Part shown: one piece after another, positions 18,169 through 20,625 of the stretch
Layout of the letters: each line of letters begins with the position of its first letter
Position numbering within the stretch: the stretch's first letter is position 1
Virus record (IMG/VR): IMGVR_UViG_3300045988_175607
Coordinates: 1 to 47,955 of that record
Length of the DNA: 47,955 bases
Direction: 5' to 3' (one strand)
Source of the DNA: a virus
The notes under the pieces: generated by a model
What the model saw: the letters and a program-made list of their open reading frames with translations, nothing else
Database searches by the model: none
Told to the model about the DNA's origin: nothing
Translations under genes and position numbers: made by a program

Positions 18169-18186
18169 TAAGGAGATAAAATAATT

Positions 18187-18261
18187 ATGGGACTGAAAGA
18201 TATTAAGCCGCATCAGGTTAGTCGAAACTTGAAGGGATATTCTGTATTCTTTTATGGAGAG
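18187..18261 (+). CDS. Sak4-like RecA-fold ATPase, exon 1
   Basis: RBS aggag; MGLKDIKPHQVSRNLKGYSVFFYGE supplies the first half of Walker A (G-E + PKSGKTT). Confidence 0.6.
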
Positions 18262-18584
18262 AAGTAAAAAGGCTCTCCCTATATAGTAATATATAGTAAA
18301 AAACTCTTGGAAAAACAGGAAGGCTGTAAAATGCTAACCCGAGCGGAAGTTATTGAGTAACGTTGATAACACGCGCAACGCATAGGTTTGAAACTTAATC
18401 TTAATTAAGAATATAAATTTAACCCACGAGCCAAGGGCGCCTATCTTGTTAAAGATAGGATGAAGAGATATGCTGAACCAGATTGGAATTGACTAATCAA
18501 TATTTAAAGATTATACCACGTCTTTAGAGAATGAAGGAAACTTCTGGAATTAAAGGATAAAAAGCCTTTAAGATAACAAATATG
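18262..18584 (+). ncRNA. ORF-less group I-type intron (family B) in the Sak4-like gene
   Basis: Family-B core elements ggaaggctg...atgctaacccgagcggaag, gcaacgcatag, cccacgagcc, agatatgctgaac, hairpin taaagg-ataaaaag-ccttta, 3' end gataacaaatatg. The joined product gives a canonical Walker A GEPKSGKTT. Confidence 0.6.
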
Positions 18585-18872
18585 CCAAAAAGTGGTAAAA
18601 CAACTATTGCAACCCGCTTCCCGCGGGCATTGCTTCTAGCCTTTGAAAAAGGATATAATGCACTCCCTGGGGTCATGGCTCAGCCCATAAATAGCTGGGG
18701 TGACTTCAAGAAAGCTCTCACAGAGTTGAGAGACCCGGACGTACAGTCCATGTTCGAGACCGTGATTCTCGACACCGCGGACATCGCATACAGCTACTGC
18801 GAGAAGTACATCTGCAGTCGTGAAAGCGATCAGAAGAATACTTACGAAACTGTTGCTGATATACCTTACGGT
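18585..18872 (+). CDS. Sak4-like ATPase, exon 2
   Basis: PKSGKTTIATRFPRALLLAFEKGY...DTADIAYSY...ADIPYG. Confidence 0.65.
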
Positions 18873-19954
18873 AAAATCTTTGCCGCTTATTAATGGTAAC
18901 ATTAATCAGAAAATCGTAGTAAAAAACTGGAACTCTGAAATGGGAATCAGAGCGGAAGGTCAGGTTTAAAAGCCTTACCACGCACAACGCATAGAAAAAT
19001 TAAACATTAGAGGAGGATTGCCTCGGCATGGGGAAATCAATAAAATTAACATTAGAGCAGGAACAACAGATAATTTATAATTATACTGTTTTAAAACAGG
19101 GCCAAAAAAAAGCGGGAGCTTTTATTCCGGTAAGTGATCATATTGTTAAAAAAGTTTTAAATAAACACAATATTCCTATTAAAACTCTTCAAGAAACTAA
19201 TGCCAATAAATATTATATTAATCATGATTTTTTTAAGGTACAAAATGAAGATATGGCTTATTGGTTAGGAATTTTAGGTTCTGATGGTTGTATTAGTTCT
19301 ATGGAAAATCAAATTTATATAGAATTGCAACGACAAGATAAAGAACTTTTAGAAAAATTAAATGCAATTATAGAGAATCAGCGCCCCGTTAAAGATTATG
19401 AAACCGCTCGAGGTTATGAAAACAGTAAATTATATTTTTATTCTAAAGAAATAAAAAATGATTTAGCTCAATATCATATAATACCTAATAAAACTTATAA
19501 TCCAGAGTATCGTTTTCCAGAAAAATTAAAGTCTCAATATATTAAAGATTATATTAGAGGATTGTTTGATGGAGATGGAAGTATTAAACAAGGGACTTCA
19601 ATTACTTGGCAAGTTGATACAGGTTCTTATGATATTGCAAAAAAAATTGTTGAATTTTTTGCAAAATATGATATTGAATTACAAATTTCTTTTTTACCCA
19701 AAAAAAATGTAACTATATATAGGGTATATGGTTATACTAAACAAAAAGTTCAAAAAATTTATAATTTACTTTATAATACACAGTCAACACTTTATCTAAG
19801 ACGTAAAAAAGAAAAATTTGAAGAACTCCTTAAATGATATAGTTTTCCACGAGACTACGACATCTTATGCATTAAGATGAAAAGATATGCTGAACTTATA
19901 CGAATAAAAAGTATAAGAACTAAAAGATAAAAAGCTTTTAGGATAACAAAATTG
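18873..19954 (+). ncRNA. group I-type intron (family B) with a LAGLIDADG homing endonuclease ORF
   Basis: 5' aaaatctttgccgc..., cagagcggaagg, gcaacgcatag; 3' ttccacgagact, agatatgctgaac, hairpin cttatac/gtataag, hairpin taaaag-ataaaaag-ctttta, gataacaaaattg then exon. Confidence 0.65.
19028..19837 (+). CDS. LAGLIDADG homing endonuclease (two motifs)
   Basis: WLGILGSDGCIS and IRGLFDGDGSIKQ. Confidence 0.8.
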   Translation: MGKSIKLTLEQEQQIIYNYTVLKQGQKKAGAFIPVSDHIVKKVLNKHNIPIKTLQETNANKYYINHDFFKVQNEDMAYWLGILGSDGCISSMENQIYIELQRQDKELLEKLNAIIENQRPVKDYETARGYENSKLYFYSKEIKNDLAQYHIIPNKTYNPEYRFPEKLKSQYIKDYIRGLFDGDGSIKQGTSITWQVDTGSYDIAKKIVEFFAKYDIELQISFLPKKNVTIYRVYGYTKQKVQKIYNLLYNTQSTLYLRRKKEKFEELLK

Positions 19955-20578
19955 AAAGGTTATACAATGGCGCAGGATGAGTTTGACACATGCATCCGTA
20001 AAATTCTCCAGTTGAATTATGGTCTTGTTCTTATTAGCCATTCGACTGAAAAGACTTTTACTAATGAAAAGGGCCAAGAGGTATCAAAGATAGTGCCTAC
20101 TCTTGATAAGCGCGCTCGCCTTGTCTGCGAGAGAACTTGTGATATAATAGGTTATTCTCGTTCTATCGATACCGATGATGGTAATAAGACTATTTTGTTT
20201 ATGCGTGGCACCCCTCGCTTTGTTGCAGGCAGCCGCTTCCGCTTCACTCCTGATTTTATTGAGTTTTCTTATGATAACTTGGTAAATGCAATTGCGGAGG
20301 CCATAGACAAGGAAGCCGCAGCTTCAAACGGTACTCTTGTTACTGATGAAAAGACTCAGGTAGTAAGTCAGGAAGAGACTTATGATTTTGAAGCTCTTAT
20401 GAAAGAGTTCCAAGATCTGGTTGGTATTCTGATGCAGAAAGATCAGGGCAATGCTATAAAGATTACTCAAATTGTTGATAAACATTTGGGTAAGGGCAAG
20501 AAGGTTGGCGATTGTACTGCCGAACAGGCTGCAATTATTGATCTTATAGTTCATGATATAAAGGCTCTGAATAAGTAA
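19955..20578 (+). CDS. Sak4-like ATPase, exon 3
   Basis: KGYTMAQDEF...LVLISHSTEK...continues the RecA-fold core; frame open from the intron end. Confidence 0.65.
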   Translation, partial: KGYTMAQDEFDTCIRKILQLNYGLVLISHSTEKTFTNEKGQEVSKIVPTLDKRARLVCERTCDIIGYSRSIDTDDGNKTILFMRGTPRFVAGSRFRFTPDFIEFSYDNLVNAIAEAIDKEAAASNGTLVTDEKTQVVSQEETYDFEALMKEFQDLVGILMQKDQGNAIKITQIVDKHLGKGKKVGDCTAEQAAIIDLIVHDIKALNK

Positions 20579-20588
20579 ATAAATATAA

Positions 20589-20625
20589 ACCCGAAGTATC
20601 TTGTACTTCGGGTTGATTTTTATTT
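20589..20625 (+). terminator. rho-independent terminator
   Basis: acccgaagta-tcttg-tacttcgggt followed by a T run. Confidence 0.8.

Follow-up and report, generated by a model that had tools for sequence, protein, structure and literature searches.

Genes split by several group I introns are known from phages of Firmicutes: orf142 of Twort holds three such introns (Landthaler and Shub 1999, as cited in PMC11878797), and DNA polymerase and terminase genes of Bastillevirinae hold two or three (PMC11878797). Here we analyzed a stretch of viral DNA of 47,955 nucleotides (nt) (IMG/VR record IMGVR_UViG_3300045988_175607, positions 1 to 47,955; hereafter the window) in which, as we read it, a gene for a Sak4-like ATPase is interrupted by two group I introns, intron 1 (insertion site 1) and intron 2 (site 2). 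The window and the multi-intron genes of Firmicute phages have in common several related group I introns per gene (IA-type, tentatively so in the window), located at highly conserved motifs, with homing endonuclease genes in peripheral loops, derivatives lacking an open reading frame (ORF), and a presence or absence that varies among related phages. The window differs from them in its host gene, which encodes a Sak4-like AAA_24 ATPase, in an intron family that is missed at the Rfam gathering score, and in one intron without the U·G pair at its 5' splice site. A group I intron in a phage recombination ATPase gene, carrying a homing endonuclease, is also found in recA of Bacillus phage 0305phi8-36, where it encodes I-Bth0305I (PMC3239194); that case differs in that the host protein is RecA and not Sak4/AAA_24, the endonuclease is of another family, there is a single intron, and no unusual splice site is known to be reported for it. 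The element is thus of a known kind, phage group I introns of which one carries a LAGLIDADG homing endonuclease gene, and it is its 5' splice site that is unusual. The three-exon gene is in itself no surprise, group I introns with homing endonucleases being well known in phage genes; as far as a two-term full-text search goes, which returned one paper, a Sak4-like host gene appears new for them.

The last exon base of group I introns has been described by Tourasse et al. as "virtually always a U (or exceptionally a C)", and group B IStrons were found by reverse transcription polymerase chain reaction (RT-PCR) to splice after G with the U·G pair shifted by one base; this literature takes a U at -1 as near-universal and not absolute, with C and G exceptions (PMC4227781). 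These IStrons (for instance BcISt1 of Bacillus cereus) and intron 1 of the window share an IA2-like ribozyme (tentatively so in the window), helices between P7 and P3', and a 5' exon ending in G that was recognized through element-free alleles, with confirmation by RT-PCR for the IStrons (PMC4227781) and by sequence comparison alone for the window. The IStrons keep the shifted U·G, its U being the first intron base, whereas the window intron starts with A and has its -1 base in a Watson-Crick G-C pair; they hold an insertion sequence (IS) element, whereas in the window there is no IS, mobility is presumably due to a LAGLIDADG gene, and the intron lies inside a protein-coding frame. Intron 1 therefore resembles the group B IStron class but is not a member of it.

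The interrupted Sak4-like ATPase gene

We consider it very likely that the region encodes one 328-amino-acid (aa) Sak4-like ATPase (AAA_24, SPbeta YorG-type) of a large gut phage, and that its gene is split by two related group I introns, both from a single phage intron family that is widespread. In a protein search, thousands of homologues read FFYGEPKSGKTT and IPYGKGY across the two sites, among them uninterrupted 328-aa proteins of 97-99% identity, which continue as IPYGKGYTMAQ. At the nucleotide level, three related loci without intron in this gene (L001-L003) read GGAGAG/CCAAAA and TACGGT/AAAGGT (slashes mark insertion sites or exon-intron boundaries throughout) and are colinear with the joined exons, so the inserts measure exactly 323 nt and 1082 nt (Table 1). 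Exon 1 opens with ATG and ends in FFYGE, its last six bases, GGAGAG, forming the 5' strand of P1, and exon 2 contributes the remainder of the Walker A box and a Walker B-like hhhhD motif. The joined protein aligns in a single stretch to Pfam AAA_24 (profile positions 2-195 of 195, E-value 2.8e-40, 138.7 bits for a cut-off of 27) and to phrog_124, "Sak4-like ssDNA annealing protein" (E-value 7.9e-49); a function in single-stranded DNA (ssDNA) annealing or recombination is predicted by family annotation only. In-frame read-through bridging either intron was ruled out, even with TAG taken as a sense codon, by TAA codons at 18265 (reached by the exon 1 frame) and 18891.

A first examination of the letters alone (the original prediction) had proposed these three exons with the same boundaries, a Sak4-like product, a Walker A box existing only after removal of 323 nt, a first intron without ORF, a second one encoding a two-motif LAGLIDADG enzyme, and an ATG at 18582 that is the intron terminus with omega-G and not a start codon. 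Comparison with the intron-less alleles and protein families bore out the exons and the product, and GEPKSGKT is indeed present only across junction 1 once the insert is removed. Intron 1 folds into a group I core and holds no ORF; intron 2 is its relative, also of group I, and its two-motif LAGLIDADG gene is full-length. The ATG at 18582-18584 consists of the last three bases of intron 1, with the terminal G that is constant in the family and no Shine-Dalgarno sequence ahead. A stand-alone 304-aa protein starting there was rejected, as it would in addition lose strand beta-1 and the first P-loop Gly. Many 304-aa database entries start with MPKSGKTT and 292-aa entries start with the translated intron tail; both are gene-caller artefacts of interrupted alleles. 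Similarly, the TTG at 19952 chosen by ORF finders lies within the tail of intron 2. Across such introns gene callers yield false proteins of 304, 292, 103 and 52 aa, which are now in public databases.

The inserts come and go among relatives. L005 and L006 have the 323-nt intron at site 1 and an uninterrupted site 2, L004 has a site-1 intron of 1114 nt with a LAGLIDADG gene, and L001-L006 all read TACGGT/AAAGGT at site 2. Gut samples ERR10754251, SRR29133708 and SRR25533087 are the source of L004-L006, and in them the intron-1 allele is the only one assembled. Introns of the same family also occupy both sites in L092, a homologue that has diverged much further, and the P1 and P10 of its site-2 intron are those of intron 2 of the window. 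In L007-L009 an unrelated group I intron occupies a third site of the same gene, between EKG and YNALPG; it measures about 1.07 kb, has U at -1 and the end GUUAAG/, and encodes a LAGLIDADG protein of 264 aa close to the 5' end. As a side observation, a member of the family with U·G is inserted one codon past site 1 (GEP/K, GEA/K) in L028 and L020/L032/L049.

The two inserts are members of a single group I intron family, characterized by helices P1-P9.1, a P3/P7 pseudoknot and a terminal G. They have in common the blocks GAGCGGAAG, CACGCNCAACGCAUAG, CCACGAG and GAUGAARAGAUAUGCUGAAC and the tail GAUAACAAAWWUG/. A core 20-mer of the family was found in 65 IMG/VR viral contigs, and three times in the window with at most 2 mismatches, for an expectation of 0.01. 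We aligned 22 non-redundant members and tested an explicit structure (P2, P3, P4, P5, P6, P6a, P7, P7.1, P8, P9 and P9.1), with P7, pseudoknotted over P3, given in separate brackets and a compact reference used for the pair count. Cells were paired in 90.7% of cases (31-40% with slid partners), compensatory changes were present in 44 of 58 pairs, and the covariation score was 0.625, compared with at most 0.165 in slid controls and reached by none of 500 shuffles. P3 is 99% paired with 5 of its 6 pairs co-varying. P7 (GCAUA/UAUGC, here the two strands of the helix, with a bulged C and an A-U pair beyond) is invariant in all 22 sequences and would supply the G-C pair that a guanosine site requires. 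Between P7 and P3', one stem co-varies as well (97% paired, with an inner hairpin in some members); it has the P7.1/P7.2 position of subgroup IA and is where the endonuclease genes sit. A resemblance to subgroup IA (IA2-like) is suggested by this one co-varying stem. The terminal G is constant across the family, and the base preceding it varies.

For intron 1, an unconstrained minimum-free-energy fold recovers P1, P2, P5, P6/6a, P8 and P9.1 (z = -2.99), and, at the level of sequence, the G-site in P7 comprises G18380-C18473, the bulged C18379 and the pair A18378-U18474. The introns of L004 and the window have P1 and the P9/3' domain in common; their P3 sequences differ and the differences are fully compensated.

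Table 1. Positions of the features of the Sak4-like gene and its two introns in the window
Feature	Position	Strand	Description
Shine-Dalgarno-like AAGGAG	18170..18175	+	11 nt before the true start codon; read from sequence
Exon 1	18187..18261	+	25 codons, MGLKDIKPHQVSRNLKGYSVFFYGE; colinear with intron-less alleles L001-L003
Intron 1	18262..18584	+	group I, 323 nt, no ORF; exactly absent from intron-less alleles
Intron 1, internal guide sequence GGCUCUCC	18271..18278	+	guide co-varies with exon across nine lineages
Intron 1, P2	18279-85/18290-96	+	
Intron 1, P3	18304-10/18431-37	+	
Intron 1, P4	18316-19/18338-41	+	one A x C mismatch, 18317/18340
Intron 1, P5	18322-24/18333-35	+	
Intron 1, P6	18343-45/18372-74	+	
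Intron 1, P6a	18350-55/18364-69	+	
Intron 1, P7	18380-84/18469-73 and 18378/18474	+	second part across the bulged C
Intron 1, P7.1	18385-88/18421-24	+	
Intron 1, P8	18440-47/18452-59	+	
Intron 1, P9	18478-82/18543-47	+	
Intron 1, P9.1	18550-56/18565-71	+	
Intron 1, terminal G	18584	+	
Exon 2	18585..18872	+	96 codons, PKSGKTT...VILDTAD...IPYG; frame afterwards reaches TAA
Intron 2	18873..19954	+	group I, 1082 nt; core-profile matches E 2.4e-18 and 3.4e-16
Intron 2, P1	18869-18885	+	CGGU/AAA-AUC-UUUGCCG, 7 bp, canonical U18872·G18882; stem also found independently
Intron 2, 5' core	18913-18996	+	GCAUAG at 18989-94
LAGLIDADG homing endonuclease gene	19028..19837	+	269 aa; GGAGG ahead of ATG; TGA stop
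Intron 2, 3' core	19843-19904	+	
Intron 2, P9.1 tail	19918-19954	+	terminal G 19954
Exon 3	19955..20578	+	207 codons and stop, KGYTMAQDEF...KALNK
Terminator-like hairpin	20588..20624	+	12 pairs, then T-run; 10 nt past the stop codon

The 5' splice site of intron 1

The original prediction had also remarked that the junction of exon 1 and intron 1 apparently follows a G, and comparison with the intron-less alleles gives the same result: the base before intron 1 is G18261, which faces C18273 in a P1 of six Watson-Crick pairs (GGAGAG, 18256-61, with CUCUCC, 18273-78), so that this intron has no U·G pair. We retrieved site-1 introns by matching the 3' junction, with no constraint on the 5' side, read P1 by hand and compared the codon boundary Y-G-x/P-K-x-G-K-T-T (Table 2). 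The guide matches the exon at every position, -1 included, in all nine lineages: the six lineages in which the codon ends in U have U·G, and the three with GAG have G-C. Codons for Glu cannot end in U. The host proteins of the three G-C lineages have diverged, and two introns of the G-C type (L004 and L087) carry LAGLIDADG genes, that of L004 with an in-frame TAG. This distribution indicates that the G-C state has been maintained and is not accidental. We think it quite likely that intron 1 is removed precisely after G18261.

Table 2. Codon 25, exon end (positions -6 to -1) and guide of the site-1 introns by lineage
Lineage	Codon 25	Exon	Guide	Pair at -1
L093/L095, L132 (two lineages)	GAU (Asp)	GGAGAU	GUCUCC	U·G
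L096/L101	CCU (Pro)	GGACCU	GGGUCC	U·G
L097	GGU (Gly)	GGUGGU	GCCACC	U·G
L092	GCU (Ala)	GGAGCU	GGCUCC	U·G
L164	GCU (Ala)	GGGGCU	GGCCCC	U·G
Window, L004-6	GAG (Glu)	GGAGAG	CUCUCC	G-C
L140	GAG (Glu)	GGAGAG	CUCUCC	G-C
L075/L087/L170	GAG (Glu)	GGUGAG	CUCACC	G-C

The exact position of this junction can be questioned in two ways. The sole ambiguity of the alignment at site 1 is a slide of 1 nt, by which exon 1 would end with A18260 and the intron would run from G18261 to U18583, and DNA alignment alone cannot separate G/...G/ from A/G...U/G. The slid intron would end in U in the window and in C in L087, whereas the G assigned as terminal is constant in every family member; moreover, neither reading places a U at -1. 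We regard this slide as the least probable of the alternatives considered here. Hardly more probable is splicing at a nearby U, which would leave a small deletion or insertion in the P-loop. Weak alternative P1 helices can be drawn by inspection for U18255 (UUAU with GUAA) and U18265 (AGU with GCU), but splicing after U18255 would lose the Gly-Glu of GEPKSGKT, and splicing after U18265 would break the frame unless the intron ended in A, while homologues invariably retain G-x-P-K-x-G-K-T. The insert is also exactly the 323 nt absent from intron-less alleles, and the guide pairs perfectly with GGAGAG and co-varies with it. A wobble shifted by one base, as in the IStrons, was rejected for the window: it fits L140, the only one in which the base at +1 is U, and not the window, where it is A, and the G facing +1 in all site-1 introns is the first base of a conserved GG able to form P10. 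L140 itself could use the IStron geometry.

In the mechanism we propose, each intron would fold after transcription into a P3-P9 ribozyme core, its guide would pair with the end of the upstream exon (P1), and free guanosine would attack the 5' splice site. In intron 1 this site is at G18261-C18273, and its guide has switched from G to C opposite position -1. The intron's terminal G would then take the G-site in P7 and the exons would be ligated. Ligation at junction 1, which would read TTTTATGGAGAG/CCAAAAAGTGG, would restore the Walker A box GEPKSGKT, and ligation at junction 2 the invariant YG/KG. A putative P10 of intron 1 pairs GG (18271-72) with CC of the Pro codon (18585-86), and this GG of the guide is present in all site-1 introns.

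On balance, we favor the reading that a natural group I lineage splices accurately with a Watson-Crick G-C pair and no wobble, the pair switching between U·G and G-C according to the preceding codon. A strong 6-bp P1 or a LAGLIDADG maturase-type helper possibly compensates for the missing wobble. Several points weigh against our interpretation of the gene and its introns. We infer splicing and its efficiency from sequence comparison. In model ribozymes, mutation of the U·G pair reportedly lowers the activity of the first step (Barfod and Cech 1989; Doudna et al. 1989; Strobel and Cech 1995), for which reason a G-C site might splice poorly. P4 of intron 1 holds its A x C mismatch, and P10 is just 2 bp. 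Strong purifying selection on the exons (synonymous differences per site, pS, 0.295; nonsynonymous, pN, 0.013; pN/pS 0.04; window versus L005) does not prove a functional interrupted allele, given the recent spread of intron 1: it is 100% identical (323/323 nt, window versus L005/L006) between alleles with differences at 29% of their synonymous sites. At the Rfam gathering threshold no RNA family was detected anywhere in the window, though four group I introns lie there, and under permissive filters the best score for RF00028 was 13.6 bits, for a cut-off of 50; this low score reflects the seed set of the model and not the fold, and since the family scores so far below the cut-off, standard annotation would miss it. 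Finally, the U·G pair has been described as critical and "completely conserved" (PMC11835236).

Taken to its end, the doubt about this pair leads to an intron 1 that is dead or poorly splicing, with the gene inactivated or expressed only as a truncated 304-aa protein from the ATG at 18582. The 5' splice site without U·G, the mismatched P4 pair, a recent spread that leaves exon conservation uninformative, and the fact that the 304-aa ORF does get called by gene callers all agree with this. However, G-C was kept in three lineages with diverged host proteins and a guide altered to match the exon (GGUGAG/CUCACC, exon and guide), and core helices show compensation from one site-1 variant to another. 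No Shine-Dalgarno sequence precedes 18582, and the 304-aa product would be without strand beta-1 and the first P-loop Gly. The guide GGCUCUCC is an exact complement of the 8-nt ligated junction GGAGAG/CC, and there is precedent for splicing after G. We therefore judge a dead intron improbable, although less so than a displaced junction, and retain accurate splicing at the G-C pair.

Two further family members bear on the base at -1. In L057 (IMG/VR contig, about 5744-6100), the boundary reads GGGGC/GAAUACUU with guide GCCCU, and the intron appears to splice after C, as judged from the exon frames in comparison with L011, where an intron lies 5 nt upstream in the same gene. L081 (GGAGG/CU...AACCUCC) may be a further non-U case.

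Intron 2 and the probable mobility of the introns

Intron 2 has the makeup of a complete mobile unit. In its P7.1 loop sits a LAGLIDADG gene that encodes the motifs YWLGILGSDGC and YIRGLFDGDGS. The 269-aa product matches Pfam LAGLIDADG_3 in two stretches (E-value 8.3e-10) and an endonuclease family, phrog_4645, over residues 4-267 of 269 (E-value 3.5e-40); a sequence search of the PDB with it returned no informative relative. The UUU of the guide region can form P10 with the first three bases of exon 3, AAA (19955-57). The enzyme, whose activity is predicted, would presumably cut intron-less alleles near TACGGT/AAAGGT, leading to homing of intron 2, and an intron-less target for this putative endonuclease would read ...ATACCTTACGGTAAAGGTTATACA....

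Intron 1 is the ORF-less form of the site-1 intron that carries a LAGLIDADG gene in L004 and L087. Around site 1, the exons of the window and L005 are identical from 27 nt upstream to 29 nt downstream. An identical intron within such a short tract is what homing or recombination leaves when it is recent and its co-conversion is short.

Neighboring genes, further introns and consequences

The neighbors of the gene encode YorF-like and YorH-like proteins and a DnaB-type helicase, in the yorF-yorI order of SPbeta. SPbeta YorG and the window thus share both the protein family (AAA_24, phrog_124) and the neighborhood YorF, gene, YorH, DnaB-type helicase; in SPbeta and the cultured relatives the gene is uninterrupted, unlike in the window. 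The closest cultured relatives are Enterococcus phages VRE9, EF1, EF5 and H1 (134-142 kb; 48.6% identity, annotated Sak4-like), and the SPbeta/phi3T homologue has 31% identity. A megablast search of the locus against annotated phages returned no match, and a PDB sequence search with the ATPase no informative one. Annotations of Staphylococcus phages S-CoN_Ph8 and S-CoN_Ph2 divide the Sak4-like gene into two neighboring genes, and tblastn matches it in two pieces, which may reflect a frameshift or a small interruption. In L003 (4755-6233) gene calls break the DnaB-type helicase into 426 aa and a fragment of 44 aa, in place of 509 aa; another insertion may be the reason. L001 and L003 have a GIY-YIG gene upstream of the module (about 378-806), absent from L002.

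Two more introns lie elsewhere in the window. The third member of the family (43731-44527, minus strand, 797 nt) is located in a small Gly/Asn-rich gene starting at 44623, with a canonical P1 (CUUGGU/ with guide GCCAAG) and, in its P7.1 loop, an HNH endonuclease gene starting at 44367; with TAG read as Gln, this ORF matches phrog_59 in one stretch (residues 1-158, E-value 1e-49). A fourth, more diverged intron (39064-40524, plus strand, 1461 nt) interrupts a dUTPase gene whose exons (38818-39063 and 40525-40728) join into a product with a one-stretch match to Pfam dUTPase. Its P1 is canonical (GUCGGU/ with guide GCCGAC), and the P1 loop, which precedes the core, contains a large ORF interrupted by several in-frame TAGs.

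In-frame TAG codons occur in several reading frames (window 39900-40180 and 43500-45300, and L096). The HNH profile aligns straight across TAG, and the Sak4-like allele of L001 has TAG where others have CAG (Gln10), as does L075. These observations suggest that TAG encodes an amino acid here, probably Gln. No tRNA gene was found in the window.

The newest intron database, of 2025, rejects every candidate without U (PMC11835236), so introns of the G-C type are invisible to it and the complete conservation of U·G claimed there is partly circular. All introns of the site-1 series share one insertion site, and the series is in effect a natural experiment on the U·G rule; it also offers ready constructs for gauging the contribution of the wobble pair in a phage ribozyme of probable IA type. 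If our reading is true, this family does not strictly need the wobble pair, and censuses that require a U would systematically miss such introns.

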